This document shows positions 2,319 through 53,152 of a DNA stretch of 61,061 nt, piece by piece (position 1 is the stretch's first letter; each line of letters starts with the position of its first letter). The notes beneath the pieces were generated by a model, which ran no database searches, was not told the origin of the DNA, and was given only the letters and a program-made list of their open reading frames with translations. Both the position numbers and the translations under genes were made by a program. This stretch comes from Bacteroidales bacterium (GTDB lineage: Bacteria; Bacteroidota; Bacteroidia; Bacteroidales; F082): positions 1-61,061 of the forward strand of contig JAFYUH010000137.1 in the NCBI GenBank assembly GCA_017549605.1, in the 5' to 3' direction.

Positions 2319-2380
2319 AAATTCAAAATCTCAGAATCTCAGAACTTCAGAACTTTTGAGTTTTTGAATTTTTGAGATTC
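2319..2380. repeat. TCAGAA[TC]C word hairpin between convergent thpR and acyltransferase; overlaps the acyltransferase 3' end
   Basis: 'aaattcaaaatctcagaatctcagaacttcagaacttttgagtttttgaatttttgagattc'. Confidence 0.8.
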
Positions 2381-3560
2381 TATTATTAAGCCAATTTCTA
2401 ACAGGTTCGTCATATAGTTTCAAACAGATGTATGCTAATGTGATATTCGTTGCCATGACGAGCAGTACCATCTGCCATGTTTCGCCGAGAGTGTATAACT
2501 CATTATCGATGAGCCATGAGTAGAAGAGATACATCACTGGATAATGTACTATATATAAAGGATAGGAGATGTCTCCTAAGAACTTGCATAACTTAGTGGT
2601 GAAGCCGTTTGTGATGTTTGCTGCTGCGCCGAACCATATTATCGCTGGAAAGACCAATATGATACACGATAATTCATAAATGCCGTTAAGACTGACGCTG
2701 CCCGTCTTCGTGATATAAGGCATAGAGAAAAGAACGAACATCACGATTACTGAAAGCCAAAAAATAGTTTGGTCGCTTAGCTTAGACCCCGTACTCTGAC
2801 TTAGTGTCTCGGTGTCTCGGCGTCTCGGCGTCTTATTAAAATTCCTCGACATTAGCATTCCGAGGGTGAATGGGAATAGCATCCTCAATAATCCTCCGAA
2901 GAAATTGACAGCGTCTAAGGTCCAGCCGATGCCTATCATATCGTATGTGGAGATGTCGAAGACGACGAAGCTTGTCCATAATAATCCAGTCATCACGACT
3001 AAGAATGCCAATCCTTTGTTGGATAGTTTTCTTATAAACAAAGCGTACAATATATTACCGATATATTCAAAGAAAAGCGACCAGCTCGGTCCGTTGAGAG
3101 GATACATCTCCCCATTGCCGCGTACATCGTAAGACGCTCCTGGATAAGCAGGGATGAGAAACATGGCAAGGAAAAACGCTACAAGAATCCAGTGAAATGG
3201 CATCTGTGTGCCGTCCCATCTTACTCCGCCTTGAAGGAGATATGTCGCCAGTCCGATGACCGCGCCCATCACCACCATAGGCTGCAATCTGACAAGACGA
3301 CGCTTGAAGAAGCTCCAGACGTTGACCGTTGACACTGACTGTTGACACAGACTTGGTGACTTCCATCTGTCATCATAAGCATAGCTGATGACGAATCCCG
3401 ACAGCATGAAGAAGAAGTCGACGCCGAGATGTCCGTGGTTGAAAGTCTCTATCATAGTGCCGCCAGCGAAGGCAAAACCTTCAAAGACGTGATACCATAA
3501 AACCATCAGAGCCGCTACACCGCGCAATCCGTCGAGTAATAAGTAATGCTGCTTCTCCAT
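2331..3560 (-). CDS. Acyltransferase family 3 integral membrane protein
   Basis: 409 aa, multi-pass hydrophobic, with the acyltransferase_3-type N-terminus 'LDGLRGVAALMVLWYHV'. It carries two in-frame word-repeat blocks, and its last codons plus stop lie in the TCAGAATC hairpin. Confidence 0.75.
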   Translation of the reverse strand: MEKQHYLLLDGLRGVAALMVLWYHVFEGFAFAGGTMIETFNHGHLGVDFFFMLSGFVISYAYDDRWKSPSLCQQSVSTVNVWSFFKRRLVRLQPMVVMGAVIGLATYLLQGGVRWDGTQMPFHWILVAFFLAMFLIPAYPGASYDVRGNGEMYPLNGPSWSLFFEYIGNILYALFIRKLSNKGLAFLVVMTGLLWTSFVVFDISTYDMIGIGWTLDAVNFFGGLLRMLFPFTLGMLMSRNFNKTPRRRDTETLSQSTGSKLSDQTIFWLSVIVMFVLFSMPYITKTGSVSLNGIYELSCIILVFPAIIWFGAAANITNGFTTKLCKFLGDISYPLYIVHYPVMYLFYSWLIDNELYTLGETWQMVLLVMATNITLAYICLKLYDEPVRNWLNNRISKIQKLKSSEVLRF

Positions 3561-3634: not shown

Positions 3635-6600
3635 TTAATAAACAACTTTCACTGTCTTTACACATTCTTTATTTATCAAGCGAACGATATATGTGCCATT
3701 GTCGAAGCAACTCATATCTATTCTATAGTTGTCTTCTGAGACCTCGTTGCTATAGACGATGCGTCCCATTATGTCGATAATCTGAGCAGTGCCGATGGCA
3801 TTGATGATAAGTTCGTTGCCTGATTGATATACGAAATTGTTATTACAGTTTTCGTCAGATAATTTGTCATCTTTTGTAAATCTTACAACAAAACGATTGC
3901 GGATGTCTTGTGATGAAGCTGTGAATGTGTAGTCGTTCAGAAGCATATCGGTCTTTTCACCTGTGATATTGTCGACGAGAGTGATTGTCTCGAACTCGCC
4001 TTCGCTCTCGATGTGAAGTGTGTAGTTGCCCATTTCTTTTGCTTCGAAGTCGACATTGACTTCCTTGGCGTCTTCGTTACAGTTGTAGATTCCGTAATGC
4101 TTGTCGTTGCTTGTGACATAGATGTTAGCGATTGACTTATTGAAGTTATTCAATTTGTTGAAGCCCTCTTGACCTTCGTAGTTCATACATATTATCAGGT
4201 TGTCTTTGCCGCTATTGCTTGAAGCTATGATGTTGATAGAACGTACTGAGTTGTCGCTTCTTTGTTTTGCTACATTATATGTTAATGTAGGCTTGGTGTG
4301 GATGGCTTTTACGAAGAAACCGTCGCCGGCTTTGATAGTGCCGGATGTTGCATATTCATAACCGCCGTCAGCCTTTACGACAGCGTATCCGTCTGCTATA
4401 TCTTCTTTTTGAAGATTGTCCCAATCCATATCGAATGAGAAAGGATTGCCAAGGAGATGGAAGTTGGCGAGGTCCTTGCCTGTTGCGTAAGACAATGTGT
4501 ATTCGTGTGTCTTCTCGTTGTTGAGGATGCCTTTGAATACGGCCTGTGTCTCGCTTTCATAAGATGCCAAATAGCCTTTGCCTTGTTGGAATGTTGTCTT
4601 GAATTGTCCGCCTTTGTGGTTGAGCCATTCGAGTTCGTTGTTGCCTTCATATTTGTATAAGTCGTAGTCTGATGACTCAGGGATGAAGTCTTCTATATTG
4701 GCGTTTTTCACAGGAGATGAGATGAACTGCCATCCGTTGATGTTTTCGATGCTCCATTCGTCAGGGTTGATGATGTTCATTATGAATGTCGCTGCGACAT
4801 CATCGCTGCTTTGGAATACCTGAGCGCCGTCGTTGATGATGAGTCCGTCTGTATTGGCGTTGATGAGATCATTGTTGACAGTGAGTCTGACGCCTTCGTT
4901 AAGTGTAAGCGAACCGTTGTTGATTGTCATTGAATTTACTTCAACCTCTCCGCTTTCTATTGTAGCGTTGGCGTTGATGAGGATAAGGAAATCGTTAGCT
5001 GTAGGCACTTGTTTCTTGCTCCAGTTTTCTGCGTCATTCCAGAGACCGTCTTGTACGAAGGTGTTAGGGTTCTTATAGATCTTTTCAGACCATTCTATTC
5101 TTGATTCTTTGCTGCCGTCACCAGAGATGGCCACTTCGTCAAGACCTGTGCAGAAACCATATCCCGCAACATTTACGAATGCGATGTGGAATTTCTTGCC
5201 GATAAAGTCGCTTAAGTTGATTTCTACCTTTGTCCATTCAGAAACATTGGTTTTGTTGCTTGACCATACCTCTTTCCATCCGTCGTTATGAGCGGTGTTG
5301 CTTACCATGACTTTCAATGTGTTGACGTCAGTACCCCATGCTGGTGTGATATAATGGAATGACAGACTTATGCTGTTTCCGTCATATTGAGTGTAATCCA
5401 TAGGATCGGTTACCAGATATGTCAAATATGTAGGACTGTTGATATAAGACTTGATGAATGCTGCCTTGTTTCCCATAAAAGGAGTAAATATTGTCGGATT
5501 ATTTACTTGACCGGCGGAGAAGCTTTCCTCAATGACCCAGTTATATTTGCCGTTTTCGTTGTAATAGTACCAGTTTGGATTATTCGCATCATAAAGGGTG
5601 CTTGTAGATAAGCTTTCGAAGCCTTCTTCGTAGATTTTGCCTTGTTGTAAGTATAAGTTAGCTACACCATATTGATAAGCGCCGTCTTGCAATGTGTTCC
5701 AGTTGCTGTCGGTATATGTTTCGCCGTTTATGTTGGTAGCTATTTGTGTCTCTTCGCCAGATGTTTCGTTTTTTCTATAGATATTAGAACCTTTGCTGTT
5801 GTTGCCGTTGCTCCAGCTTATTTCTACATCGTTGCCGTTTACGTTTGCAGCCACATTGCTAGGAGCAGGTGTGCTTGAGTTGTCTTCTGTCTGAACGCGT
5901 AATATTTGAGAATATTCTGATTCTAAGTCTCCGCGTTTTGATGTCATGATGTAACTGTATAAAGTGCTATATTCCAATCCTTCGTCTATGTATGAAGTAC
6001 TTTCTGTATTAGCGAGGAATATCTTGTTGCGATAGATGTTGTAGCTTGTGGCGTTGTTGGTTTCATCCCATGTAAGTTTGATGGAATTGCCTGCAACCTG
6101 AGCGCTGATGCTTGGAGGAAGGAGCTCGTTGGAGATGTTTGCTACAATGTCGAAAGTACGTTTATGGCTTCCATTTGTCGCATTGACAGTGAAAGTGACC
6201 TTGTGATTGTCTGGAACTAATTTGTCGATAGTGATGACGAATTTAGCGGCTGCTGTTGCGTTGGCAGCCATTACGCCCATACTTTCGTTTCCGTCGACGA
6301 TAGTGACGTATTTGTCGTTTGTTGTTATAGTGACATTTGTATTTCCTGATGTTGAGCCTTGACCGTTATTGATTAATGTAAGTTCTAAGTTAAGATTTGT
6401 TCCAGGGATGAAATTGTTAGTGAAAGAATAAACGTTGAGGTAAGGATCGCTGGTGTTGAAATCGACGGCTTGTACGGCAGCGAGGGCGTCGATACAGCCA
6501 GAGCCAGTGTTGTTGTTTTTCTTGTCTGAAAGCTTTACTGCTGTTGTCTCGATTATTCTGCATAAGTCAGATGGTGTGAGTTCAGGGTTTTTCTCGAGCA

Positions 6601-7930
6601 TGAGAGCCATGACGCCCGCGACGCAAGGAGCGGCCATAGAGGTTCCGGCTTTGATTGCATATCCGTCGTTGCTCTCGTTGCTGAGTGACTTGACGCTTAC
6701 GCCAGGAGCGCAGATGTCAGGACGGATGAGACCTATTCCAGGGTTGTATGAATAATCGTTGTAGGATGTGTATTTCCATGTTGAAGGTCCGCGTGATGAT
6801 AATGCGGCTACTGTATTGTCATAATCTACTGCACCGACGCTGATGACGCTGGTTGTGCCGCCAGCGTTGCCTTGTTGGTCAGGGTGAATCCATGGCGGAG
6901 GGCAGTTGCCAGGTGTGCGTACGTTGTTAGGAACAGGATATGATGAAAGTTCGTTTCCGCTGTTTCCGGCTGCTACAGAAGTGACGACGCCTGCTTCTAA
7001 CACATTGCTGAATACTGTACGGAATGTCGCGCTTAAGTCGGCTGATGGATACCATCCCAATGACATGCTGATGATGTCAGCGCCGTTGTCTACAGCGAAT
7101 TCTATAGCGGAAATGATTTGTTCTGTTGTAGCGTTGATGTCTGGGTCGCTGACTTTAAGACACATAAGTGTTGCGTCTGGAGCCATGCCTGTTGCGAGGC
7201 CTGAGGTTCCGTCGCCGCAGATAGTGCCGGCGCAGTGTGTGCCGTGACCTTTGTTATCTAATGTTGATTGTCCAGGAGCGATGAAGTTATATCCGTGATG
7301 TGGGTATTGTGTGCCGCCATCCCAGAGGTGGTCTTTAAGGTCGACGTGGTTGTAGTTGACACCGCTGTCGATGATGGCTACCAAAACGCCTTTGCCTGTA
7401 TAACCTAAATCCCATACCTTGTCGGCATTGACATGTGTGACGTTTTCTGTGAGATTGCTATCTTCGCCTCTCAATGATTCGTTTTCGTCTTTATCGTCGT
7501 AAATGACAGATAACTCGCTGTTGTGGCTGATGCTTGCGATGTCAGGATGTGATGATAATTGGTATACGACATCGCGTTTTGCCTTGCAACTGACGCTGTT
7601 GATGATCCAGTGGCTTGTGATGTCGGCGACGCTTTCGCTTCTTTCTTCAGCCTTGATGATAGACATTATATCTTCTTGAGATTGCTTTGAGAATTTCTTC
7701 AACTCGTTGATGACTATCTCGCGACGCACTTCTTTGCTGTCGCTCTTGCAATATAATGACGATAAATTTTCTGTCGGCATCTGTGTTTTTAGACTGATGT
7801 TAATGCTGATGTAATCGTCATTCTTTTGGTTTAAGATTTTCTGTAATTCAGGGTCAATTACGTTGTTTTGCGCGTTTAACATAAAGATGCACAAAAACAA
7901 ATTAGCTACAAGTACAAATATTTTCTTCAT
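3635..7930 (-). CDS. Subtilisin-like S8 serine peptidase, multidomain, T9SS C-terminal sorting domain (paralog A)
   Basis: The ORF-track start at 7939 is TTG; the first ATG is at 7930 (MKKIFVLV..., signal peptide). Triad motifs are 'AIIDSGV', 'HGTHCAG' and 'GTSMAAP', with oxyanion 'AAGNSG'. Other parts are an I9-like propeptide, FN3 units, a cleaved-adhesin/choice-of-anchor-J-like module, and a C-terminal beta-sandwich tail '...IIDIMGRIVYSNE...GTYIVRLINKE...VKVVY'. Confidence 0.88.
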   Translation of the reverse strand: MKKIFVLVANLFLCIFMLNAQNNVIDPELQKILNQKNDDYISINISLKTQMPTENLSSLYCKSDSKEVRREIVINELKKFSKQSQEDIMSIIKAEERSESVADITSHWIINSVSCKAKRDVVYQLSSHPDIASISHNSELSVIYDDKDENESLRGEDSNLTENVTHVNADKVWDLGYTGKGVLVAIIDSGVNYNHVDLKDHLWDGGTQYPHHGYNFIAPGQSTLDNKGHGTHCAGTICGDGTSGLATGMAPDATLMCLKVSDPDINATTEQIISAIEFAVDNGADIISMSLGWYPSADLSATFRTVFSNVLEAGVVTSVAAGNSGNELSSYPVPNNVRTPGNCPPPWIHPDQQGNAGGTTSVISVGAVDYDNTVAALSSRGPSTWKYTSYNDYSYNPGIGLIRPDICAPGVSVKSLSNESNDGYAIKAGTSMAAPCVAGVMALMLEKNPELTPSDLCRIIETTAVKLSDKKNNNTGSGCIDALAAVQAVDFNTSDPYLNVYSFTNNFIPGTNLNLELTLINNGQGSTSGNTNVTITTNDKYVTIVDGNESMGVMAANATAAAKFVITIDKLVPDNHKVTFTVNATNGSHKRTFDIVANISNELLPPSISAQVAGNSIKLTWDETNNATSYNIYRNKIFLANTESTSYIDEGLEYSTLYSYIMTSKRGDLESEYSQILRVQTEDNSSTPAPSNVAANVNGNDVEISWSNGNNSKGSNIYRKNETSGEETQIATNINGETYTDSNWNTLQDGAYQYGVANLYLQQGKIYEEGFESLSTSTLYDANNPNWYYYNENGKYNWVIEESFSAGQVNNPTIFTPFMGNKAAFIKSYINSPTYLTYLVTDPMDYTQYDGNSISLSFHYITPAWGTDVNTLKVMVSNTAHNDGWKEVWSSNKTNVSEWTKVEINLSDFIGKKFHIAFVNVAGYGFCTGLDEVAISGDGSKESRIEWSEKIYKNPNTFVQDGLWNDAENWSKKQVPTANDFLILINANATIESGEVEVNSMTINNGSLTLNEGVRLTVNNDLINANTDGLIINDGAQVFQSSDDVAATFIMNIINPDEWSIENINGWQFISSPVKNANIEDFIPESSDYDLYKYEGNNELEWLNHKGGQFKTTFQQGKGYLASYESETQAVFKGILNNEKTHEYTLSYATGKDLANFHLLGNPFSFDMDWDNLQKEDIADGYAVVKADGGYEYATSGTIKAGDGFFVKAIHTKPTLTYNVAKQRSDNSVRSINIIASSNSGKDNLIICMNYEGQEGFNKLNNFNKSIANIYVTSNDKHYGIYNCNEDAKEVNVDFEAKEMGNYTLHIESEGEFETITLVDNITGEKTDMLLNDYTFTASSQDIRNRFVVRFTKDDKLSDENCNNNFVYQSGNELIINAIGTAQIIDIMGRIVYSNEVSEDNYRIDMSCFDNGTYIVRLINKECVKTVKVVY

Positions 7931-7984
7931 AAGAATCAATGAGATTTAATTGGATGCAAATATAAGAATAATTTGGTGTTTGGT

Positions 7985-8042: not shown

Positions 8043-11000
8043 TTATAATATTACTATTTTTTGTGACCTTACTGTATTCTCGTTAATGTTACGTATTACG
8101 TAAGTTGTCTTGTTGAACTTGCTTACATTGACCCTGTTGTCTTCTCCAACGATGTCAGTGGTGTAAACAACTCTACCCATCATATCAATGATTTGAATTC
8201 TGCCTTCAGCCTTGACGATAAGTTCGTCGCCGCTTTGATATACAAACTGACCGTTGTCTGTTGTCTGTTGTCTGTTGTCCACCTTTACGACAAATCGGTT
8301 GTGGGTGTCATTGCTTGTAGCTGTGAAACTGTATTCGTTTTCGATGAGCATATTTGTTTCAATGCCTGTGAAGCGGTCGACCAATGTGACAGTTTCAAAC
8401 TCGCCGTTTATGTCTAAACTGATGCTGTAATTGCCCATTTGTGATGCTACGAATGAGAGCTCTACTTCAGTAACGTTTTCGTCTAAGTTGGCGATGCCGT
8501 AACGTCTGCCGTTATTGGCAACGAATACTGTAGCAATTCCTTCATTGAAGTTTTGCAACTTATCAAAACCTTCTGATTGTCCTGCGAAGTTGATGATTAC
8601 GTTGTCTTTACCAGCATTGCCAGAAGCGATGACATTTATGCTGTTGAATTGTCTGCCGCTTCTTGTTATCTCTTTTTTATGATCGTAAGAGAATGTTGGT
8701 TCTGCTGTAATGGCTTTCACGAAGAATCCGTCACCTGTTGCTATTGTAGTATCTGCAGGCGCATAGATGTAAGCTCCGTTAGTGCCTATTATAGCATAAC
8801 CTGTTGTCAATCCTTCTACTGTAGCTTTTCTCATATCCATATTGAATGGGAATGGGTTTCCGAGAAGGTGGAAGTTGGCGAGAGGTTTTTCTTCATTGTA
8901 GGATATTTCTGTGAAATTGAAATGATCTTTGCTGTAGAGAGAACCTGTCAGTGAGGCTGTAGATTCTGTTTCGTATGAAGCGAGGTAACCACGTCCGTTT
9001 ACGAAATCTTTTTCAAAGTCGGCGTCTATATTGTTGCCTTTTTTATGGTTGTTCCATTTTGTGTCCTCATATTTGTATAAGTCGTATGATCTGGCGGCTT
9101 CGTTGCCTGTAAAGTTCATAACGCTGGAGGTGTTGAATGGAGAAGCTATGAATTGCCAGCCGTCTTTGTTGCTACCCGACCATGATGTCGGATTTACAAT
9201 ATTCATATTGAATGTTGCAAATACGTTCTCGCTGCTTTGGAACAATTGAGCGCCGTCATTGATGATGAGTGATGCAGCGTCTGTGTTTGTCATTGTGCCG
9301 TTTACAGTGAGACGGACACCGCCATCAATTGTCATAGAACCGCTGTTGATGCTTACAGATTCTACAATGATATCACCGCTCGTTATTGTCACATCACCAT
9401 CGATGATGACATCATCTGTTGCTGTTGGGATAGAGCCTTTGCTCCAGTTGTTTGCATCGCTCCATAAACCGATGCCGGTGAATATATTGATAGAAGGATT
9501 TACGGTGACAGTGAATGAGTGAGGGTAAGTTGTTGTTTCTGTATGAGTTGAAATTGATTTTACATTGTAAATAGTGATGTCGTCAACAGCCAAGGCAGCA
9601 TTGTCACCGCAGTCGAAATGTCTGATGGCAACCCAAATGTTTTGACCCTCATAATCTACCAACATTGAAGATTTCAGAGTCATTTTCAAAGAGTTCGAAT
9701 TTTTAGCAAGAGTCCAGGCATCTACTTGTTTGAAAGAATTTACATCGGTATTACTTGTAGTTGATACGAAAACACCAAATTTTTCCACTGCATATTTGGT
9801 TTGATTTGCCATAGAACATACATGAAATTCAAATGTAGTACCATCTGATGGTATGATCTGTTCTGGCATTACTAACCAACGGTCTGGTGTAAGAGTTTTA
9901 TTGCCTTTATTGCAAAAAGACTCGCTGAATACGAAACCGCCAGTAGAATATGATTTATTATAATCATGACTGCTTTGTGTGCTTGAATGATACCAGTCGT
10001 GGTCATCTGCAGTTATAGTAGTGCAGCCTTGTAAATCATTGTCGAATGTATAGCTTTTATTGGAGACGCTTTCACTTATGACTTCATTTTCTACTATGAT
10101 ATTTATTTCAAAGTCTAAATCGTAGTTAGAAGGAATGTCTTCTGCCAATTTTATGCTAAATGAGACTGTTGTTGTTTCTCCAACTGCAATAGAACCAACA
10201 TTGTATGTGCCGTTAATGATGTTGACATATTCGTTGTCACACACTAAAGTCGCTGTTGTTGCGGCAGGTGTGGCTTTTTCACATTTATTAATTAATGTTG
10301 CAGTCAATGTTGCGTTTCCGTTTACAAGATTATCCAAGTTGAATGATTTTACAATCACACCAGTGAGTTTCTTGTCGGTTGTAGCGCAGGTGTTTTCTGA
10401 TAGTTCAGATTCCCCGACTTCGTTGACGGCTGTTACGTTGAAGCAGTATGTTGTCTCGGCTTCAAGGTTTTCAATGAGATATGTTGTTTCAGTCAGCTCT
10501 ATGTCGAGTGTTTCTGTGCCGCGATAGATATTGTAGCTCAATGCATTTTCAACGGCGTCCCATCTCAAGATTATAGATGATTCACCGTCAGCTGTCGCTG
10601 TCACTACAGGAGTTGCTGGTGCTTTTGGAGCTTCTAATGTTGTAGCGCAGGCGTCTTCAGATTTTTCAGACTCACCGATTTCGTTGACTGCTGTTACGTT
10701 GAAGCAGTATGTCGTTTCGGCTTCAAGGTTTTCTATGATGTATGTTGTTTCAGTCAGCTCTACAGCGAGTGTTTCTGTACCTCGATAGATATTGTAGCTC
10801 AATGCATTTTCAACAGCGTCCCAAGTCAAGACCACTTCTGATTCGCTTGTAGCTTCTGCTGTCGCTACAGGTGCTGTAGGTCTTTCTTTGAATGTTGTAG
10901 CATAAGCTTTTTCTGATTTCTCAGACTCGCCGATTTTGTTGACTGCTGTAATGCTGAAGCAGTATGTTGTCTCGGCTTCAAGATTTTCTACAGTATATGT

Positions 11001-14000
11001 TGTCTTGCTTAGTCCTGTCGCAATCAATTTTGTATCTTGATAAACGTTATAGCTTGCGGCTTCTTTGACATTGTCCCATTTCAAGACTATTTCTGATTCG
11101 CTTATCGCTTCTGCTCTTAGATTTGTTGGAGTTTTTATTGATGTAGGTTCTGATGTGGTTTCGCAGACTTCTTCAGAAAATCCTGATTCTCCAGAACTTG
11201 TGACAGTCGTTACAGCGTAGCAATATTGTGTCTCATAAGAAAGTTCGGTATCGACGTAAGCAGGTTCTGTCACAGTAGCGACTTTCTGTCCGTTGCGATA
11301 TACGTTATATTTGTTTACGTTATTGACGGCATTCCATGACAATGATATCTTTAATTCATCTGCTAATGTAGCTGTGATGTTTTTAACTTCAGGCAAGTTT
11401 ATTGTAGAACTTGCTATTACATTAAAATAGTAAGGGTCATCGAGACTATAAGTGGAAACGTGTTTCGTATTTACGATTACGTTTGAGAAAGCGATGTCAT
11501 CAATGTTTAAAGCATCAACCCCGAGTCCGCCGTCAGCTTGATAAGGGTCGTCCCATTCTTCATTTGTAAAGAAGTGACGTATGGCAATATAGATTTCCTG
11601 ACCTGCGTAATCGCTTAAGTCAACGGTATATTGCTTCCATGTTGTGCTTGTTGAACTTTCTGTTATTTTCCATTCTTCTATTGTGGTAAAGTCATTGGCA
11701 GAGGTGTTGCCAGTTGTTGACACTGCCAAACCAAAATGTTCCTTATAATATGCAGTGTAATGAGCACGTGCGTAGAAACTTACCTTACTGTTTTCGGTGA
11801 TTTTGACTTTTGCAGGAGATACGAGATAGTTGTCGATAGGATATGTGTATTGTATCATCTTAAGACCAGAATGACTCATAAGGTGTCCTTTGCCAGTGTG
11901 AGACTCGAATGGTTTTTTTTCGACGCTGTTAGCGTTAGAACTATGATTCCAAGGAGTTTTAATGTTATTGTTGCTTGCATTGAAACTGGTCCATCCTTGC
12001 ATATCGTTTTCGAATTCATAAACATAATCTTTTGGTTCTATGTTTTCTGAATATGTTTCAAGGAAGAAGTCAAATTCAAAACCGTCTTTAGGTTCTTTGG
12101 TTTCGATGGTAAATGTTCCTGTACCAGTTTCGTTTACATCCAATGGACTGATTGTGGTTACATCATTGATTAAAGTTAGGTGTTTCAAACTAGATGAAAT
12201 AGACACGAGTTTGAGTGTTATTGGACCTGAGAAGTCTGCAGTTCCATCGTTAACCATAGTGACTCTGATGTCGGTTTTTGTATTTGGCTTTACTACACCA
12301 GGACTTACACTTTGGAAGGTGAGTTTAGGACTGGCAGTGATGTTGATATAGAACACATCATCCCATTTGTAATTGTCGCTTGTTGTCGTTACGGTGAAAG
12401 TAGCAGTATGTCCGTTTGGCGTGGCAGGATTAACATCAAGTTCAAAATATAATGTTTTGGTGTTGTTTACACCGATAGTTCCTGTTGTTTGTGAAGGGTT
12501 TACGATCGTTACGTATGGGTCGTTTGCCAAAGACAATGTCACTGTTGTATTTTCATCGCTTGGACCATTGCCTTCGTTTTTCAATGTTATTCCGAGAGTG
12601 CTGTTTCCTGCAGATATTGTTGCTGGAGAGAAGGTGTTGAGTTTTACATAAGGATGTTCGATAACTTCAGTGATGCCGTTGACAGCAGCGAGAGCGTCGA
12701 CGATACCAGCTCCGATTATATTGTTTTTTGTTGCAGGTTTTGAAGATGCTGATTCTTCAATTATCTGTGATATCTGAGCAGGAGTGAGTGCTGAATTCTT
12801 TTCCAACATAAGCGCGATTACACCGGCAACGCATGGTGTTGCTTGTGATGTTCCGCTCTTGACGGCATTGTCGTTATTGCCGTTGTGTTTAGAAGAATAG
12901 ATGTAATAACCTGGAGCTGAGATGTCAGGACGGATGAGACCCATTGAAGCGCCACTGTTGTATGGATAGTCGTTGTAAGAAGTTCCTTCCCATGTTGAAG
13001 GACCGCGTGATGACTCGTTGAGGTCGTGAGCGCCGACGCAGATGACGCTTGAGTTGCCGCCTTTGAGTGTCTGGTTAGGGTTTGTCCAAGGTGCAGGACA
13101 TGCTGCTGGGTAGTCGACGTTGTCAGGTGCTCCGTAAGTGTCGCCATCGTTACCTGCTGCTGCACAGACGACAACGCCTGCACTTAACACATTGTCGAAA
13201 GCCTTGCGGATCTCTTCTTTCTGTGCTGTGGTTAACTGACTGTTCTTGAAACCTAATGACATGCTTAAAACGTCAGCGCCGTTTTCAACAGCGAACTGGA
13301 CGCCGCTCAGCATCTGTGACACTGAACCGCCACCAACACGGTTGATAATCTTTACGGTCATAAGGGATGCGTCTGGAGCAATGCCAGTGGTGTTGCCAGA
13401 AGTGCCGTCGCCACAGACGATACCAGCACAGTGTGTTCCGTGACCAAATTCGTCGGTGATGTCGCTATTGCCTCCGTCGAAGTTCCATCCGTTGACGTAG
13501 GTGTCAGGAGTACCGTCATTGTTAGTGTCGATATGACCTGACCAGAGATGGTCTTTTAGGTCGATGTGTTCAGTGTTTGTTCCAGAGTCCAACACCGCAA
13601 CAACAACATTTTTGCCTGTGTAGCCTTGTGCCCAGACATCGTCAGCATTGACGCTTACTACGTGAGCAAAAGGACCTCTTACGTCAGCAGGTTTTGCCTC
13701 GATGCTTTTCATCTGTTCTGGAGAAATCATCTGAATCTCCTTGTCATAGCCGATGATCTTTACGTCAGGATGAGAAGATAATTTATAGATTACATCTTTA
13801 GAAGCCTTACAGCTAATTGTGTTGGCGATCCATAGGTTGCGGATGTCGGAGACTTTGCCGTTTAATTTTTCTGCTTCTAAAATGTTTAAGACATCAGACT
13901 GAACATTTCCTGAATAAGTCTTAAGTTCATTGATGACAAAATCTTTCTTTTCTGATTTTGTAGAAGCGTTTCTGCTTGCTTGCTTAAGTTTGTTTGAATC

Positions 14001-14156
14001 TATATTTGACTTGAAATAGATCTGTATGTCAATCAGTTCTTCGTTTCTTTGGTTTAAAACTTTTTGCAACTCAATGTCAATCTTGCTGTTGTCTTGAGCA
14101 TTGGCGAATCCGCATAAGAATGACAATAAGAATAATGTAAAAATGATTTTTTTCAT
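8043..14156 (-). CDS. Subtilisin-like S8 serine peptidase, 2037 aa, two adhesin-like modules, four FN3 repeats, T9SS sorting domain (paralog B)
   Basis: Signal peptide 'MKKIIFTLFLLSFLCGFANAQ'. Triad motifs are 'VAVLDSGT', 'HGTHCAG' and 'GTSQATP'. Four tandem FN3 units carry the 'SYN(V/I)Y' signature. The C-terminal ~470 aa are homologous to the paralog A tail. Confidence 0.88.
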   Translation of the reverse strand: MKKIIFTLFLLSFLCGFANAQDNSKIDIELQKVLNQRNEELIDIQIYFKSNIDSNKLKQASRNASTKSEKKDFVINELKTYSGNVQSDVLNILEAEKLNGKVSDIRNLWIANTISCKASKDVIYKLSSHPDVKIIGYDKEIQMISPEQMKSIEAKPADVRGPFAHVVSVNADDVWAQGYTGKNVVVAVLDSGTNTEHIDLKDHLWSGHIDTNNDGTPDTYVNGWNFDGGNSDITDEFGHGTHCAGIVCGDGTSGNTTGIAPDASLMTVKIINRVGGGSVSQMLSGVQFAVENGADVLSMSLGFKNSQLTTAQKEEIRKAFDNVLSAGVVVCAAAGNDGDTYGAPDNVDYPAACPAPWTNPNQTLKGGNSSVICVGAHDLNESSRGPSTWEGTSYNDYPYNSGASMGLIRPDISAPGYYIYSSKHNGNNDNAVKSGTSQATPCVAGVIALMLEKNSALTPAQISQIIEESASSKPATKNNIIGAGIVDALAAVNGITEVIEHPYVKLNTFSPATISAGNSTLGITLKNEGNGPSDENTTVTLSLANDPYVTIVNPSQTTGTIGVNNTKTLYFELDVNPATPNGHTATFTVTTTSDNYKWDDVFYINITASPKLTFQSVSPGVVKPNTKTDIRVTMVNDGTADFSGPITLKLVSISSSLKHLTLINDVTTISPLDVNETGTGTFTIETKEPKDGFEFDFFLETYSENIEPKDYVYEFENDMQGWTSFNASNNNIKTPWNHSSNANSVEKKPFESHTGKGHLMSHSGLKMIQYTYPIDNYLVSPAKVKITENSKVSFYARAHYTAYYKEHFGLAVSTTGNTSANDFTTIEEWKITESSTSTTWKQYTVDLSDYAGQEIYIAIRHFFTNEEWDDPYQADGGLGVDALNIDDIAFSNVIVNTKHVSTYSLDDPYYFNVIASSTINLPEVKNITATLADELKISLSWNAVNNVNKYNVYRNGQKVATVTEPAYVDTELSYETQYCYAVTTVTSSGESGFSEEVCETTSEPTSIKTPTNLRAEAISESEIVLKWDNVKEAASYNVYQDTKLIATGLSKTTYTVENLEAETTYCFSITAVNKIGESEKSEKAYATTFKERPTAPVATAEATSESEVVLTWDAVENALSYNIYRGTETLAVELTETTYIIENLEAETTYCFNVTAVNEIGESEKSEDACATTLEAPKAPATPVVTATADGESSIILRWDAVENALSYNIYRGTETLDIELTETTYLIENLEAETTYCFNVTAVNEVGESELSENTCATTDKKLTGVIVKSFNLDNLVNGNATLTATLINKCEKATPAATTATLVCDNEYVNIINGTYNVGSIAVGETTTVSFSIKLAEDIPSNYDLDFEINIIVENEVISESVSNKSYTFDNDLQGCTTITADDHDWYHSSTQSSHDYNKSYSTGGFVFSESFCNKGNKTLTPDRWLVMPEQIIPSDGTTFEFHVCSMANQTKYAVEKFGVFVSTTSNTDVNSFKQVDAWTLAKNSNSLKMTLKSSMLVDYEGQNIWVAIRHFDCGDNAALAVDDITIYNVKSISTHTETTTYPHSFTVTVNPSINIFTGIGLWSDANNWSKGSIPTATDDVIIDGDVTITSGDIIVESVSINSGSMTIDGGVRLTVNGTMTNTDAASLIINDGAQLFQSSENVFATFNMNIVNPTSWSGSNKDGWQFIASPFNTSSVMNFTGNEAARSYDLYKYEDTKWNNHKKGNNIDADFEKDFVNGRGYLASYETESTASLTGSLYSKDHFNFTEISYNEEKPLANFHLLGNPFPFNMDMRKATVEGLTTGYAIIGTNGAYIYAPADTTIATGDGFFVKAITAEPTFSYDHKKEITRSGRQFNSINVIASGNAGKDNVIINFAGQSEGFDKLQNFNEGIATVFVANNGRRYGIANLDENVTEVELSFVASQMGNYSISLDINGEFETVTLVDRFTGIETNMLIENEYSFTATSNDTHNRFVVKVDNRQQTTDNGQFVYQSGDELIVKAEGRIQIIDMMGRVVYTTDIVGEDNRVNVSKFNKTTYVIRNINENTVRSQKIVIL
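8253..8280 (-). repeat. Heptamer tandem repeat (GTTGTCT x3 + GTTGTCC) inside the S8 paralog B CDS
   Basis: Direct reading. It encodes 'NRQQTTDNG' just upstream of the T9SS sorting domain. Confidence 0.9.
10370..11400 (-). repeat. Four tandem ~250-bp FN3-encoding units within paralog B
   Basis: Units 3 and 4 (about 10385-10620 and 10625-10870) are roughly 85-90% identical at the nucleotide level by eye. The peptides 'LSYNIYRGTETL..ELTETTY.IENLEAETTYCFNVTAVNE.GESE' are repeated. Confidence 0.85.
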
Positions 14157-18391: not shown

Positions 18392-18474
18392 AGCTGTTGG
18401 CTATTGGCTGTTAGTTAAAAGTCAACAGACAACTTTCAACCTTTTCCGTTGTCCGTTGTCTGTTGTCCGTTGTC
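18392..18474. repeat. GTTGTC[CT] heptamer run x4 facing GTCAACAGACAAC, plus CTGTTGG/CTATTGG words
   Basis: 'agctgttggctattggctgttagttaaaagtcaacagacaactttcaaccttttccgttgtccgttgtctgttgtccgttgtc'. It lies between the leuS stop and the paralog C start. Confidence 0.8.
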
Positions 18475-18479
18475 TATTA

Positions 18480-21347
18480 TTAACCGACTACGATATTTAT
18501 AATCTTCTTAGGAACGACGATGACTTTCTTGATACTCTTGTCGGCGATCCATTTCACTGCTTCCGGTGATTCGATGGCGGCTTTTTCTATTTCTGCCGGA
18601 CTTAATGTGATAGGCAATTCTAAGTCGAAGCGTTTCTTGCCGTTGATTGACACTGGATATGTGAAGTTGTTTTCAACGACGTAGCTTTCTACGAACTCTG
18701 GGAATTTCTGCATTACGACGCTGTCTTCATGTCCCATCTGGTGCCACAACTCTTCTGCGAGGTGAGGAGCGTATGGTGATACCATGATTGCGAGTGGCTC
18801 AAGGATTTCGCGTTTGTTGCACTTGAGGTCTGTCAATTCATTGACACAGATCATGAATGCTGAAACTACAGTGTTGAAAGATATTCTTTCGATATCGTCT
18901 TCTTCTTTCTTGATGAGTTTATGCAATGACTTCAACTCTTCTTTTGTTGCTGGCTCATCGCTGAAGCAGAATTCGTTATTTTCGTCTGTATATAATCTCC
19001 AGAACTTACGGATGAAACGGTAGACACCTTCGATGCCTTGTGTGTCCCATGGCTTTGATTGTTCGAGTGGTCCGAGGAACATTTCGTAAAGTCTCAAAGT
19101 GTCAGCGCCATATTTAGCGACGAGGTCGTCAGGGTTTTGAACGTTGAACTTAGACTTTGACATCTTTTCTACTTCCCAACCGCAGACGTAGATAGGATTA
19201 CCTTCTTTATCTTGTTCGAAGATGAACTTAGAGTCTTTGAGGTCGTCTCTCCATTGGTTGAATTCTTCTGTGTCGAGGATGTCGTTATGTACCATGCAGA
19301 TGTCGACGCGGATAGGGTCGCTGTAATAATCTCTTCCTTCAATGTTTTTAGAGACGAAGAGGTTAGAAGCGCCGAGTGTGTCGATGTCGAATGGCATTTC
19401 TTTATTGGCAAAATATTCTTTGAATTTCTGTACGTTGACGCGATATACGAAGCTTGTTCTGCCTTGGATCATACCTTGGTTGATCATTCTCTTGAATGGC
19501 TCGTCTTTGCAGATGACGCCGAGGTCGAATAAGAACTTGTTCCAGAAACGGCTGTAGATGAGGTGGCCTGTTCCGTGTTCTGCGCCGCCGATATATAAGT
19601 CTACTTGTTCCCAGTAGTTGTTAGCTTCTTTGCTGATGAATTCGTTATTGTTTTGTGGATCCATGTAGCGGAGGTAATATGCGCTTGATCCTGCGAATCC
19701 TGGCATTGTGTTGGTTTCGAGTCTGTAACCTTCTTCTGTTGTCCAGTCCTTAGCGCGTGCCAATGGTGGTTCGCCTGTTTCTGTTGGCTTGTAAGCGTCG
19801 ATAGCTGGCAACTCGAGAGGGAGTTGGCTTTCGTCTAAAGCGTAAGGCATTCCGTCTTTGTAGTAGATTGGGAATGGCTCGCCCCAGTAACGTTGACGGC
19901 TGAAGATAGCGTCGCGGAGACGATAGTTTGTCTTGCCTTTACCGATGCCCATTTCTTCAACTTTAGCGATCATTGTAGCGATAGCTTCTTTTACTGTGAG
20001 ACCGTTGAGGAACTCAGAGTTTACCATCACGCCTTCTTTAGCGTCGAATGATTCTGTCCATTGTGATGCTTCTGATGGTTCTTCGCCTGGTTTTGCAACG
20101 ACTTGTGTGATAGGTAAGTTGAAGTGACGTGCGAATGCGAAGTCGCGGCTGTCGTGAGCTGGTACTGCCATGATAGCGCCTGTGCCGTAGCCCATGAGTA
20201 CATAGTCAGCTACCCAGATTGGGATTCTAGCGCCAGTGAATGGGTTGATGCCATAAGCGCCAGTGAACACGCCTGATACTTTCTTGACCTCTGCCATACG
20301 TTCACGTTCTGAGCGGTTCTTTGCCCATGTGACGTATTCTTCAACAGCAGCGCGTTGTTCTTCAGTGACGAGCTCGCTGATCATCTCGTGTTCAGGAGCC
20401 AACACCATGAAGCTAGCACCGAATAAGGTGTCAGCGCGTGTTGTGAAAACTTCTATATTGATGTCTTTGTCGGCGATGTCGAATAACAATGATGCACCCA
20501 TTGACTTGCCGATCCAGTTGCGTTGTACTTCTTTGATTGACTCGCTCCAGTCTATTGTTTCAAGACCTTCGAGGAGACGTTCTGCGTAAGCTGTGATACG
20601 GAGCAACCATTGTTTCATGGTCTTGCGTACTACAGGGTGACCGCCGCGTACTGAGAGACCGTCGGCGACTTCGTCGTTAGCGAGAACAGTGCCGAGTTCT
20701 GGACACCAGTTAACCATAGTGTCTGCTAAGTAAGCGAGACGGTAGTTCATCAGGATTTCTTGTTGTTCTTTCTCGCTCTTTGCTTTCCATTCTTCAGCTG
20801 TGAATGTGAGTGGTGTGCTGCAAGCGGCGTCCAGACCTTCTGTGCCTTGTGCCTCGAATCTCTTTACCAAGTCGGCAATAGGCTGAGCTTTCTTTGTCTG
20901 GTTACAATAATATGAATTGAAAAGTTGGATGAATGTCCATTGAGTCCATTTGTAATAAGCAGGGTCGCTGGTGCGTACTTCGCGGTCCCAGTCGTAGCAG
21001 AAACCGATTTTGTCCAACTGCTCGCGATAGCGGTTGATGTTCTTCTCTGTTGTTATCGCTGGGTGAGTACCTGTCTGGATAGCATATTGCTCTGCTGGAA
21101 GACCGTAAGCGTCATAACCCATTGGGTGAAGGACGTTGAATCCTTTGAGACGTTTGTAACGTGCGTAAATGTCAGATGCAATATAACCGAGAGGGTGACC
21201 TACGTGAAGACCTGCGCCCGATGGATATGGGAACATGTCTAAGATATAAAATTTTGGCTTGTTGTTATCAATATCAACTTTATAGATGTTATTGTTACGC
21301 CAATATTCTTGCCATTTCTTTTCTACTTCATTAAAATTGTAATCCAT
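18480..21347 (-). CDS. leuS: Leucine--tRNA ligase
   Basis: 955 aa. It has the class I HIGH-type motif '[14 protein letters not shown]' and the KMSKS motif 'EKMSKSKFN', with LeuRS-typical length and editing-domain architecture. Confidence 0.97.
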
Positions 21348-21392: not shown

Positions 21393-21439
21393 TTGAAAAT
21401 TGAAAATTTGTAGACAACAGTCAATGGTCAACAGTCAGG
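21393..21439. repeat. TTGAAAA x2 and CAACAGTCA-type words abutting the palindromic element
   Basis: 'ttgaaaattgaaaatttgtagacaacagtcaatggtcaacagtcagg'. Confidence 0.7.
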
Positions 21440-36211: not shown

Positions 36212-36214
36212 TGT

Positions 36215-37301: not shown

Positions 37302-38741
37302 ATGAAAAGAAGCAGAAAATTATTGGCAGTGGTATCGATATTATTGATGTCATTTGCATTGCAAGCTCAAGACAGTATTCAGAATAATGATAACGGAAAG
37401 AAGAAAGAGAAGGTTTATAACGAGAAGGGCGAGCTTATCAAAAAAGGCTGGAACTTCGGTCCTCTTCCTGTCGTTGGTTTCAATTCTGACCTCGGTTTCC
37501 AATATGGTGCCTGCGTCGACATCTTCAACTACGGCGACGGTTCTCGCTATCCAAAATTCGATTATAAAATGAACCTCGAGGCTTCAGCCTACACAAAAGG
37601 TTCTCTCAACTTACGTTTCTATGGTGATTTCTATAACCTTATGCCAAACTCTCGTCTCTTCGTTGACGCTGGTTATTTCACCGACAAACGTTTTGAATTC
37701 TACGGCTTCAACGGATTTGCTTCGCCTTATTATGATGACATTTACGTTTTAGGTCAACAGACAACAGACAACGGTCAACAGTTGATTGAAAATTTTGATC
37801 CTAATTTCAACAGCGTGTTCTACAGAATGGATCGTAAACAATTCAGATTCAACTCATGTTTGCGCAATAAATTCGGTTTCGGAGAGCATTTCTATTATGG
37901 CGTAGGTCTCAGTTATTTCAACTATAACATGGGAAGAATCAATATTCACAACGAAGAATATCTTTATGACGAACAAATTACATTGTTTGAATTATATCGC
38001 GAAAGCGGTCTAATCAGAGCTAACGAAGCTGACGGTGGTAATGTCACTCAATTGAAACTTGCTTTCATCTACGATTCCAAAAACCACGACAGCGACCCAA
38101 CCAAAGGTGCTTACTTTGAAGCAACAGTGACAGCAGCTCCTGATTTTATCGACCGTGAAGGTTACAATCACATGACTTTCAATGCTGTATGGCAACATTA
38201 TATTCCAATCGTAAAGGAAAACCTTACATTCGCTTATCGTCTCGTTACTCAAAATGTTATCGCTGGCGACATCCCTTATTACGCTATGTTTAACTCAAAT
38301 ATGTTGTTCTATAAAAAGATGTCTACCGACGCTATGGGCGGTGCAAACTCAGTACGTGGCATCAACAGAAACAGAGTCATCGGCGCTGGTTACGCTTGGC
38401 TTAACGCAGAGCTCCGCTGGAAAGTGGCTGGTTTCCAATTCATCAACCAAAACTGGAACGTCGCTCTTAACCCATTCTTCGATGCAGGTATGGTGACACA
38501 AAGTTATCGCCTTGAAGAACAAGAAAAGGCTTGGTCAGAAATAGAAAAACAATATGACATTATAGGTAACAATAACCTCATCATCGACAGCTACACTAAG
38601 GGCATTCACACTTCTGCTGGTTGCGGCTTGAAACTCATCATGAATAAGAATTTCATCATCTCTGCTGAAGCAGCAAAGGCTCTCGACGCAAGAGACGGCG
38701 ACAACTTGAAGGTTTATATAGGATTTAATTACCTCTTCTAA
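37302..38741 (+). CDS. Outer-membrane beta-barrel protein (Omp85/surface-antigen-like)
   Basis: 479 aa with a signal peptide, an alternating beta-strand pattern and a C-terminal '...YIGFNYLF' aromatic terminus. The family assignment is tentative. Confidence 0.55.
   Translation: MKRSRKLLAVVSILLMSFALQAQDSIQNNDNGKKKEKVYNEKGELIKKGWNFGPLPVVGFNSDLGFQYGACVDIFNYGDGSRYPKFDYKMNLEASAYTKGSLNLRFYGDFYNLMPNSRLFVDAGYFTDKRFEFYGFNGFASPYYDDIYVLGQQTTDNGQQLIENFDPNFNSVFYRMDRKQFRFNSCLRNKFGFGEHFYYGVGLSYFNYNMGRINIHNEEYLYDEQITLFELYRESGLIRANEADGGNVTQLKLAFIYDSKNHDSDPTKGAYFEATVTAAPDFIDREGYNHMTFNAVWQHYIPIVKENLTFAYRLVTQNVIAGDIPYYAMFNSNMLFYKKMSTDAMGGANSVRGINRNRVIGAGYAWLNAELRWKVAGFQFINQNWNVALNPFFDAGMVTQSYRLEEQEKAWSEIEKQYDIIGNNNLIIDSYTKGIHTSAGCGLKLIMNKNFIISAEAAKALDARDGDNLKVYIGFNYLF
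37753..37781 (+). repeat. CAACAGA/CAACGGT heptamer words inside the OMP CDS
   Basis: 'gtcaacagacaacagacaacggtcaacag' encodes 'GQQTTDNGQQ'. Confidence 0.85.
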
Positions 38742-38864
38742 AGGCTACTAAAGGCAAAGGACTAAAGACAAATGTTGGGGAAAACTGTTGTCTGTTGACT
38801 TTTTTTAAAAAAAGTTTGAACAAAATTAACATTAGAAATATTTAATACTCAAAATTACATTCAT

Positions 38865-48226: not shown

Positions 48227-48946
48227 ATGAGTAGATTCCGTAAAATTATAACTATTTTTCTATTAGTTATAGGCTTCGCTATTGCCACTTTTGAATTTTA
48301 CAGAACCATACGTTATGCAGTTGATGCTTCCTTGAACCAGTTGTATTCTGGTTATTTATGGATGGCAGTTGGCTTTATAGTTTATCTTATTTTCCATAAA
48401 TTTTTCTTTAGAAAGAACATTGACATCATGCAGACGATGTCGCACGAAGGCGCTCATATGCTTGTAGGCGCTCTCTTCTTGAGAAGGAAAATCTATCAGT
48501 TCAATGCAAAGTCATCAGACGCTCTTTCATACGGCGACAACACTCTCGGATTTGTCAGCAGTTCAAGAAATGGCAATAGAATCAGCATTATGTCAACGCT
48601 GGCTCCTTATATGCTTCCTTACTTGACATTCTTGTTACTTTTTTTCCGTCTTATGATCAAAAATGAATGTCTCCCGATAATAGATGTCATCATTGGCTTC
48701 TCATTGATGTTCTATATCTTGTGCTGGAAAAAAGACACACGCCGCGACCAAAGCGACATACAGCTTTGCGGAGTTTTCCTCTCTTATCTTTATATCGCGA
48801 CATTCCTGCTCTTAAACATATCATTGATCATCTATTCATTAAGTGGCGGAATCTCTGAACCTATGAATATCATCGATGCTGTTAAACATTATTTCGTACA
48901 GACTTGGAACGACATCTTGATGCTCGTGGATTTAGTTAGGAATTGA
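48227..48946 (+). CDS. Membrane protein with HExxH-like motif (putative M50B/zincin-like)
   Basis: 239 aa with about 5-6 TM helices and 'SHEGAHML'. The family is uncertain. The terminal codons 'VRN*' lie in the word TTAGGAATTGA. Confidence 0.4.
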   Translation: MSRFRKIITIFLLVIGFAIATFEFYRTIRYAVDASLNQLYSGYLWMAVGFIVYLIFHKFFFRKNIDIMQTMSHEGAHMLVGALFLRRKIYQFNAKSSDALSYGDNTLGFVSSSRNGNRISIMSTLAPYMLPYLTFLLLFFRLMIKNECLPIIDVIIGFSLMFYILCWKKDTRRDQSDIQLCGVFLSYLYIATFLLLNISLIIYSLSGGISEPMNIIDAVKHYFVQTWNDILMLVDLVRN

Positions 48947-48986
48947 GGACAAAGTCTGTTGTCTGTTGACTGTTGTCCGTTGACTT
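48947..48986. repeat. GTTGTC/GTTGAC heptamer words after CDS 48227..48946
   Basis: 'ggacaaagtctgttgtctgttgactgttgtccgttgactt'. Confidence 0.75.
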
Positions 48987-53116: not shown

Positions 53117-53152
53117 AGACTGTTGTCCGTAGTCCGTTGACTGTTGTCTTTT
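53117..53152. repeat. GTTGTCC/GTTGAC word block downstream of the M1 peptidase gene
   Basis: 'agactgttgtccgtagtccgttgactgttgtctttt'. Confidence 0.65.

Follow-up and report, generated by a model that had tools for sequence, protein, structure and literature searches.

Among the simple sequence repeat (SSR) contingency loci reviewed in PMC11868660 are the opa genes, which carry a pentanucleotide repeat, and in Neisseria meningitidis the phase-variable gene pglE has a heptanucleotide repeat within its coding region (PMC7157529). For the Bacteroidales, the phase variation described in the same review (PMC11868660) is invertase-based only. Heptanucleotide tandem repeats are also known in dispersed form, as the long simple sequence repeats (LSSRs) of Mrazek et al. 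2007, here taken as summarised in PMC4679880. Repeats of the unit TAACTGA occur in Beggiatoaceae, Cyanobacteria and some Bacteroidetes, and their in-frame copies at protein peripheries give the peptide LSVISYQ in unrelated proteins (PMC4679880). Here we analyse a heptanucleotide array in a 61,061-nucleotide contig of an uncultured gut Bacteroidales bacterium (JAFYUH010000137.1, assembly GCA_017549605.1), the whole of which we call the window. The array lies in frame within the gene for a 479-residue Omp85-family outer-membrane beta-barrel protein, and a closely matching array lies in frame within the gene for a large S8-family subtilase, S8 paralog B. We consider it probable that the block in the Omp85-family gene is an old, vertically inherited and slippage-prone SSR that belongs to a clade-wide population of 7- and 8-nt arrays. 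Coordinates of the features discussed are collected in Table 1.

The array in the Omp85-family gene, ggtcaacagacaacagacaacggtcaacag, encodes residues G151-Q160 (GQQTTDNGQQ, in the context ...DDIYVLGQQTTDNGQQLIENF...) in frame with its open reading frame (ORF). The initial annotation had located this segment at 37753-37781; the site is real, and its true start is one base earlier, at 37752. On the opposite strand, GACAACAGACAACAGACAACAGACAACGGTCAG encodes ...VKVDNRQQTTDNGQFVYQSG... within S8 paralog B. The two sites have 23 of the 24 nt of CAACAGACAACAGACAACGGTCAA in common. This bears out the earlier claim that 23 nt of shared DNA give GQQTTDNGQQ and a matching RQQTTDNGQF in two unrelated proteins, which we identify as an Omp85-family barrel and a Peptidase_S8/fn3/Cleaved_Adhesin protein with a putative Por_Secre_tail. 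Chance does not explain the coincidence, since a search with the 24-mer at up to 3 mismatches returned 5 matches (0.00 expected from 100 dinucleotide shuffles) and a search with the 13-mer GACAACNGACAAC at up to 1 mismatch returned 16 (0.30 expected). Tandem Repeats Finder (TRF) describes both sites as period-7 arrays of 3.9 copies, with the Omp85 array at 37755-37781. The Omp85 reading frame contains, as an SSR contingency locus does, a tandem repeat whose unit length is not a multiple of 3.

The identity of the two peptides follows from the properties of the repeat unit. Because 7 and 3 are coprime and 21 nt span all three frames, every in-frame array gives a single peptide with a period of 7 residues. 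Read in frame, the GACAACA unit yields the cycle D-N-R-Q-Q-T-T, with G replacing R where the unit ends in G. Units of the form G[ACT]CAAC[AG] have stop codons in 0 of 3 frames, and their sense peptide is polar. The octapeptide common to the Omp85 and S8 proteins is therefore a convergence through one heptamer unit read in frame in both, and no gene-to-gene transfer is implied. Transfer between the Omp85 gene and S8 paralog B was considered as a candidate and rejected, as both blocks have a long history in their respective protein families.

We compared the window with 33 related loci and with the 120 closest protein homologs, and built a neighbour-joining (NJ) tree of the Omp85-family gene without the loop. 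A block is present at the site in 20 of the 33 genome loci and in most of the 120 protein homologs, most commonly as SQQSTVNGQQ. Blocks of this type are encoded by AGTCAACAGTCAACRGTCAACGGTCAACAG, and the DNA behind SQQSTVNGQQ, AGTCAACAGTCAAC[AG]GTCAACGGTCAACAG, equals (GTCAACR)x4. The array-bearing clade consists of ruminant-gut, Candidatus Limimorpha-like Bacteroidales, and the closest genome records are metagenome-assembled genomes (MAGs) named 'Bacteroidales bacterium', 'Candidatus Limimorpha sp.' and 'Lentimicrobiaceae bacterium'. The same codons hold the array in species down to ~77% protein identity. As reconstructed on the NJ tree, (GTCAACR)x4 is the ancestral state at the base of the ingroup, and the block is by this reconstruction old and vertically inherited. 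In the outgroup orthologs (L024, L025, L027 and L032) the loop is unrelated to the array. Most array-bearing loci have 4 units; derived states are 1 unit (L007 and L014), none (L021) and 7 units (L018), and decayed arrays are found in L002, L009 and L012, in L008, L011, L013 and L015, and in L006, L029 and L030. A concerted switch to GCCAACA units (QQPTAN) has occurred in L022, whose second array, in the N-terminal linker, uses GCCAACA too. Two parallel T>A changes, one in unit 2 and one at the equivalent position of unit 3, separate the QQTTDN of the window from the ancestral QQSTVN.

These comparisons modify the earlier proposal of an in-frame acquisition of repeat DNA. The heptamer word as the origin of the segment, and its proneness to insertion and deletion, are upheld by the ortholog alignment, in which 0, 1, 4 or 7 units occur at the site and the outgroups have an unrelated loop; a recent or independent acquisition in the window genome is not. 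All genomes with a block-bearing ortholog also contain 7/8-mer arrays, and the lone array-free genome, L033, is without the block. No terminal inverted repeats or target-site duplication, of the kind that marks a miniature inverted-repeat transposable element (MITE) or an insertion sequence, were found around the Omp85 array, and the variants differ by whole heptamer units.

Alleles were read from consensus assemblies, and loop variants were compared within clusters of at least 90% identity. The length of the loop changes in steps of 21 nt (3 units), giving 1, 4 and 7 units in related strains and species. Within the clusters, LSQQSTVNGQQELF is found alongside LSQQELF, and 7-unit forms alongside several different 4-unit forms. 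Losses of one unit are seen as well. Two contigs of the window species from different samples, L077 and L078, have exactly 7 nt fewer, which splits the gene into ORFs of 158 and 319 residues, the shifted frame ending at ...GQQTTVNS and a stop codon. The two contigs have different flanking single-nucleotide polymorphisms and different alleles of an upstream intergenic cassette. In a second species, L079 has exactly 7 nt fewer than the intact L080 between otherwise identical flanks, and the gene is again split. As these minus-one alleles occur on different haplotypes and in a second species, single-unit slippage alleles exist in nature.

Whole loop alleles also move between lineages. Protein P0178 of the window species, with the second loop allele MNYATDNGRNTLQ, and the window protein have 14 residue differences, of which 13 fall within positions 144-162. 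In the DNA this corresponds to a patch of ~270 nt with 90.2% identity; identity is 98.3% in the remainder of the gene and 98-100% across most of the adjoining ~7 kb. The pattern indicates, on sequence grounds, homologous recombination of a diverged loop allele. The patch of L075 is closest to L002, with 92.3% identity where the remainder of the gene has 85.1%; for the loop patch of the window itself, none of the sampled lineages is clearly closest as a donor, and either allele may be the import. Some Omp85 orthologs contain another in-frame array built from this word family directly behind the signal peptide, FAVNGQQTTDNGQQTTDDV... (L018:10061-10096, L019:10020-10057 and L022:9962-10041; proteins P0209-P0230), and its length, too, varies by 7 residues inside one species-level cluster.

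The 479-residue protein scores 271 bits against NCBIfam NF047779 (cutoff 200). A Foldseek search with its AlphaFold2 (AF2) model returned BamA/Sam50 barrels as best matches, with E = 6e-10 to BamA 4k3c, the model being of low confidence (mean pLDDT 58); a profile sequence search against PDB chains gave no match at E <= 1. Searches of Pfam and NCBIfam found no POTRA domains, and with only ~45 residues preceding the barrel the protein is not a BamA ortholog. It has the barrel fold and the L6 (V/I)RG motif of the BamA/TamA/Sam50 (Omp85) superfamily, but differs from BamA in having no POTRA domains and in the occurrence of null alleles in the wild, which suggest that it is dispensable.

The AF2 model places strands 1-5 at residues 50-61, 65-76, 89-97, 102-109 and 117-132, strands 6-11 at 175-190, 197-212, 246-258, 269-279, 290-304 and 308-322, and further strands after the SVRG loop at 363-380, 383-398 and 436-447. 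Long loops and short turns alternate in the model, fitting the proposed topology, and the SVRG loop lies between strands 11 and 12, at the position of L6 in BamA. The loop at 133-174, between strands 5 and 6, contains a small hairpin (149-155/158-164) formed by the repeat peptide. Since the SVRG loop sits as L6 does in BamA, strand parity would put the repeat loop outside the cell, and we infer that it is extracellular loop L3, on the same side as the SVRG loop. The 'surface loop' of the initial annotation is accordingly a long loop in the predicted structure, with its extracellular side deduced from strand parity. With the loop predicted to be extracellular, the gene fits the description of a surface or host/phage-interaction determinant.

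The array in S8 paralog B occupies the linker between ...NRFVVK and FVYQSGDELI..., where the C-terminal sorting domain (CTD) of the type IX secretion system (T9SS) begins. T9SS cleavage sites lie in polar linkers such as this one. The protein has Peptidase_S8, fn3 and Cleaved_Adhesin domains and a putative Por_Secre_tail; this tail scores 24.0 bits against Pfam PF18962, below the cutoff of 27 and over profile positions 21-75, and homologous tails are annotated as PF18962. NGQQTTDN[SG] stands directly before the sorting domain in many proteins of 45-70% identity, the same array recurs at this junction in many proteins of 40-70% identity, and it is also present in other unrelated proteins. The S8 block is, to judge from these homologs, old and widespread in its own family. 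All 6 sequenced QQTTDN blocks before a sorting domain (the window, L034, L052, L081, L082 and L083) are near-perfect arrays that read CA[AG] CAG ACA ACA GA[CT] AAC, and L052, which encodes a protein only 40% identical, nevertheless has 33 nt identical to the S8 array of the window. Other homologs have at the same junction GCCAACR arrays (NGQEPTANSQ; L035 and L036), a GCTCAAR array (AQGSQLEAQSQ; L043) or non-repeat linkers of similar length. The linker before the CTD of paralog A (3635..7939), TKDDKLSDENCNNN, is of similar length and not repeat-derived, so that the block of paralog B is no simple extra insertion relative to paralog A. Three large S8 subtilase paralogs of 1434, 2037 and 1372 residues, each with a T9SS sorting tail, lie in tandem at 3635-18360 on the minus strand, and paralog B alone has a GACAACA array before the tail.

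Arrays of this kind are abundant throughout the clade. In the 659 kb made up of the window and the 33 related loci, TRF periods peak at 7 (278 arrays) and 8 (120 arrays), 66% of the heptamer arrays fall in intergenic DNA, which makes up ~6% of the sequence, and the commonest copy number is 4-5 in coding and non-coding DNA alike. Array density is 2-8 per 10 kb in all related loci. There are dozens of unit families of 7 and 8 nt, and not one or a few characteristic units per genome. In-frame arrays of G[ACT]CAAC[AG] occur in many unrelated ORFs of the related loci, almost always in the polar sense orientation; the few antisense in-frame cases are in one probably spurious ORF. Peptides of the QQTTDN/QQSTVN type are present in both the loop and the N-terminal linker of Omp85-family proteins as well as in S8/CTD proteins, an acyltransferase-like protein and others. 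The word had been described as otherwise intergenic, and it does have five intergenic sites, but a short copy lies in ORF 2331..3560 and many genes of the relatives carry it in frame. Intergenic arrays of the word occur in both orientations relative to transcription.

Many arrays begin at or just past a stop codon, have the reverse-complement array and a T-run behind them and form strong hairpins. Judged by layout and predicted folding, these post-stop hairpins look like intrinsic terminators whose arms are tandem 7/8-mers. The RNA fold of the hairpin at 1644-1750 has z = -8.2, and that of the hairpin region at 18385-18482 has an energy of -22.5 kcal/mol and z = -3.9. The reverse-complement word downstream of the Omp85-family gene is the 3' arm of a weak terminator-like hairpin, for which a conspecific strain has 4 units against 2 in the window.

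Table 1. Positions in the window of the two coding arrays, the genes that contain them, the recombination patch and intergenic arrays of the same word
Feature	Coordinates	Strand	Remarks
In-frame heptamer array (G[TA]CAAC[AG]) x ~4	37752..37781	+	Orthologs have (GTCAACR)x1, x4 or x7 at the site
In-frame heptamer array (GACAACA)x3.9 + GGTCAG	8247..8279	-	Encodes RQQTTDNGQ in the linker of S8 paralog B
Omp85-family outer-membrane beta-barrel gene, 479 aa	37302..38741	+	NCBIfam NF047779, AF2 model, Foldseek
S8 paralog B, subtilase of 2037 aa; fn3 and cleaved-adhesin domains, putative T9SS sorting tail	8043..14156	-	
Approximate recombination patch around the array	37560..37830	+	L075 and L076 have the alternative loop allele MNYATDNGRNTLQ
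Reverse-complement word CTGTTGTCTGTTGAC followed by T7	38786..38800	+	45 nt after the Omp85 stop codon
Intergenic hairpin (GACAACR)x4, loop, GTTGTCTGTTGAC, TTTT	18421..18474	-	5 nt after the stop of ORF 18480..21347
Intergenic 4-unit array, G[ACT]CAAC[AG] family	48954..48985	-	10 nt after the stop of ORF 48227..48946
Intergenic array, G[ACT]CAAC[AG] family	53122..53148	-	Between convergent genes
Intergenic array GACAACAGTCAATGGTCAACA, G[ACT]CAAC[AG] family	21413..21437	+	

Further hairpins with the order array, loop, reverse complement and T-run lie at 1647-1742, 3561-3634, 36143-36212, 39926-40002, 43817-43892 and 50652-50758, and in L001-L032 the same layout recurs within the ~100 nt that follow the Omp85 stop codon. 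In the hairpin 3' of the Omp85 orthologs the layout is kept while the unit family varies by species (AAAGACNC, TAAAGAC, GAGCTAT, AAGGTCGC, AAGACAAC and others). Some arrays, for example those of TAAAGGC, put a stop codon in all three frames. The intergenic cassette at 36136-36214 (compared with L075:1840-1910) is swapped as a whole between strains with ~99% identity across most of the flanks, a (TAATTCA)n hairpin in one allele facing (ATGAGCN)n plus (CTTGGTGA/CTCGGTGT)n in the other, with borders exactly at the ends of the flanking genes. The window and L077 share one allele of this cassette, and L075, L076, L078 and another species (L029) share the other. The same strain comparison reveals that both arms of the hairpin at 39924-40026 have expanded together.

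Tandem words are also found in other genes of the window. A 329-residue protein (36215-37204, minus strand) has an acidic centre built from the heptamer words AGGAGTT, AGGAATT and GTTAGGA within a 69-nt repeat, which gives repeats of the EELGVRSEELGIEERRDVTPVAS type; its words are also intergenic at 43817-43892, and its length among conspecific contigs is 257, 309, 314, 329 or 330 residues. An octamer array of AGACACCA/AGTCACCG x ~4.4 lies in frame at 14342-14376, 21637-21671 and 23739-23774 (minus strand), ~100 nt before the stop codons and in the T9SS sorting domains of three different proteins, where it encodes R[HL]QVTE[TS]PSHQE right after YD[IV]YGR. The octamer family GGTGACTT, as in these sorting domains, forms intergenic hairpins at 132-157 and 1647-1742. 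Two loops of the acyltransferase-like membrane protein at 2331-3560 (minus strand), at residues ~70-80 and ~243-251, hold in-frame arrays, and the 70%-identical orthologs of this protein (L022:16543-17766, L027:3682-4920 and L023:3541-4776) have other unit families at the same two positions. The window uses the octamer AGACGCCG (KTPRRRDTETL), L022 and L027 use CAAAAGT (RQKSKVKGQKT) and L023 uses GTCAACA (SQRSTVNRQQT); the sites of the arrays are fixed and their content turns over. Distinct from the tandem arrays is a dispersed palindrome, GTAGAGACG[CT]GTCAA[TC]G ... C[AG]TTGAC[AG]CGTCT[CG]TAC, which looks like a repetitive extragenic palindrome or MITE. It has four intergenic copies (21442-21520, 29512-29565, ~32003-32057 and 48017-48095), with 7 arm matches against 0.06 expected.

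In the mechanism that we propose for the two coding blocks, they belong to a population of short arrays, typically of 4-5 units, that are mostly intergenic and often serve as arms of terminator-like hairpins. An array with no stop codon and a polar periodic peptide would be tolerated in permissive places, such as an external Omp85 loop or the linker before a T9SS sorting domain. Slipped-strand events of 3 units alter the length of the loop, and loss of one unit throws the reading frame off, so that the protein ends at the array. The unit sequence changes concertedly, from GTCAACA to GACAACA in the window and to GCCAACA elsewhere, and homologous recombination carries whole loop alleles between lineages. 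The array would in this way make a dispensable surface protein a contingency-type locus, with a variable loop and with expression that could be switched off under phage or host pressure. That phase variation at the Omp85 array is adaptive is a tentative suggestion about which we are more doubtful than confident; the array may instead be a mutational hot spot that is merely tolerated.

Several observations weigh against this account. No allele with one additional unit was seen among the assemblies, and OFF alleles are rare, amounting to 3 contigs and to 0 of 32 representative genomes. Unrelated frameshifts in metagenome assemblies (e.g. P0247) point to some background of error. Four units are fewer than the repeat number at which classical contingency loci turn strongly hypermutable. 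The structural model is of low confidence, and the extracellular assignment of the loop combines strand parity with the long-loop/short-turn rule. The taxa used for codon comparison were picked for still showing the block, which inflates the low synonymous divergence described below. The founding event may have been either an insertion of ready-made repeat DNA or an expansion in situ.

Intergenic repeat DNA might have been captured in frame recently, through transposition, illegitimate recombination or conversion by another array, in the barrel loop and separately in the S8 gene. This would agree with the abundance of the word in intergenic DNA and with the absence of the block from distant orthologs. 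That the two T>A changes hit matching positions in neighbouring units would fit a short conversion from a GACAACA array, the sharp-bordered wholesale swap of cassette 36136-36214 between conspecific strains offers a precedent, and the 33 nt that L052 shares with the window lie in an S8-tail homolog of 40% identity. We nevertheless think such a capture unlikely, given that the array occupies the same codons down to ~77% protein identity and is reconstructed as ancestral, that no terminal repeats, target duplications or flanking foreign DNA accompany it, that the window allele differs from its relatives at just 2 positions inside the array, and that the S8 block is common to many diverged homologs. 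By its reconstruction the NJ phylogeny contradicts capture as the founding event; small later conversions from other arrays may have occurred. Selection of the peptide itself, as a PorU site before the sorting domain or as a ligand or phage-contact motif in the loop, with the DNA periodicity as a by-product, seems to us very unlikely. It could account for the conservation of NGQQTTDN[SG] just ahead of the sorting domain among many proteins of 45-70% identity, but codons are locked to the repeat (ACA ACA GAC AAC etc.) in all sequenced cases. The relation of unit to peptide is one-to-one in both protein families, with GTCAACA giving QQSTVN, GACAACA giving QQTTDN and GCCAACA giving QQPTAN or QEPTAN. 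At the same junction homologs have QEPTAN or QLEAQS, or else a linker of similar length that is not repeat-derived, and the barrel loop tolerates 0, 1, 4 or 7 units and, within one species, a non-repeat allele. The fixed repeat codons, together with the other unit families at the junction, argue against selection on the peptide as such, and a peptide-level motif was rejected as a candidate on this evidence.

The coding array might alternatively act as a nucleic acid, either as one of many protein or small-RNA binding sites formed by the arrays genome-wide or as a partner of the array in the 3' untranslated region (UTR). Positions 37753-37767 and 38786-38800, which lie in one transcript unit, are perfectly complementary over 15 nt, and synonymous variation is lowered in the array: among array-bearing orthologs, synonymous codon differences at identical residues are 0.20 inside the array and 0.41 outside in pairwise comparison, and the array falls in the lowest 0.8% of 9-column windows. 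The modal 4-5 units of coding and non-coding arrays also point more to a constraint on size than to unrestrained slippage. We regard a role of this kind as very unlikely, however, as no local RNA structure was found at the coding array beyond that of shuffles (z = 0.2), L027 has the 3' arm without a coding array, and intergenic arrays lie in both orientations relative to transcription. Long-range pairing with the 3' UTR word in particular was rejected, since the 3' UTR hairpins of orthologs use unrelated unit families with partner arms of their own and do not covary with the coding array. A dedicated templated process, such as targeted gene conversion or repeat synthesis, that writes and rewrites 7/8-nt arrays at gene ends and in permissive coding loops seems to us unlikely. 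It would explain three observations that slippage alone can hardly produce: the modal 4-5 units in both coding and non-coding DNA, the full turnover of unit families at fixed sites (the Omp85 3' hairpin, the two acyltransferase-like loops and the pre-CTD linker) and the sharp-bordered swap of a whole intergenic cassette between 99%-identical strains. If it operates, the arrays in coding sequence would be a side product that has been put to use in diversifying or switching surface proteins.

An inherited, slippage-prone repeat thus remains the explanation that we favour, and identical peptides in unrelated proteins are then explained by arithmetic on a genome-wide repeat. In an abundant, uncultured lineage of Bacteroidales of the ruminant gut, short heptamer repeats yield length variants, allelic replacement and null alleles of an Omp85-family protein that is predicted to be exposed at the surface. 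If this is correct, switching by repeat slippage would be a second route to surface variation in gut commensals, beside invertases. Split genes and spurious ORFs running over arrays would also affect gene calling and pangenome counts in these MAGs. The clade further offers dense natural comparative material on an old question, the function and turnover of dispersed heptamer arrays of the LSSR type or of the short tandemly repeated repetitive (STRR) type. Cyanobacterial STRR sequences were reportedly described by Mazel et al. in 1990. The unit of STRR3, reportedly CAACAGT, is the same as the GTCAACA unit seen here.

The Omp85 array resembles SSR contingency loci in having, within a surface-related gene, a unit that is not a multiple of 3 and whose one-unit changes truncate the protein. 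Like them it has natural alleles that differ by whole units, with 1, 4 and 7 units and the frameshifted minus-one form. It differs from them in having only 4 units and in being known here from assembled alleles. It is also one copy of a mostly intergenic, genome-wide family, and it uses in-frame steps of 3 units as well. Its host is an uncultured gut member of an order in which the phase variation described is invertase-based (PMC11868660). The arrays of the window can equally be likened to LSSR, STRR and TAACTGA-type repeats, which are short 7-nt arrays (2 to ~6 units) at hundreds of sites, mostly intergenic and of patchy phylogenetic distribution, and the in-frame TAACTGA copies that give one periodic peptide in unrelated proteins are matched by peptides of the QQTTDN/QQSTVN type. 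The window clade differs from these systems in having dozens of 7- and 8-mer unit families where they have one or three, in placing array, reverse complement and T-run right after stop codons where their repeats lie upstream of start codons, and in the change of unit family at a given site between close species. Finally, as in the in-frame variable-number tandem repeats (VNTRs) of adhesins and cell-wall proteins, copy number in the Omp85 array makes an exposed segment longer or shorter while the protein stays intact. The units of VNTRs are multiples of 3, whereas that of the Omp85 array is 7 nt, so that only every third slippage outcome is in frame and the rest are null alleles.

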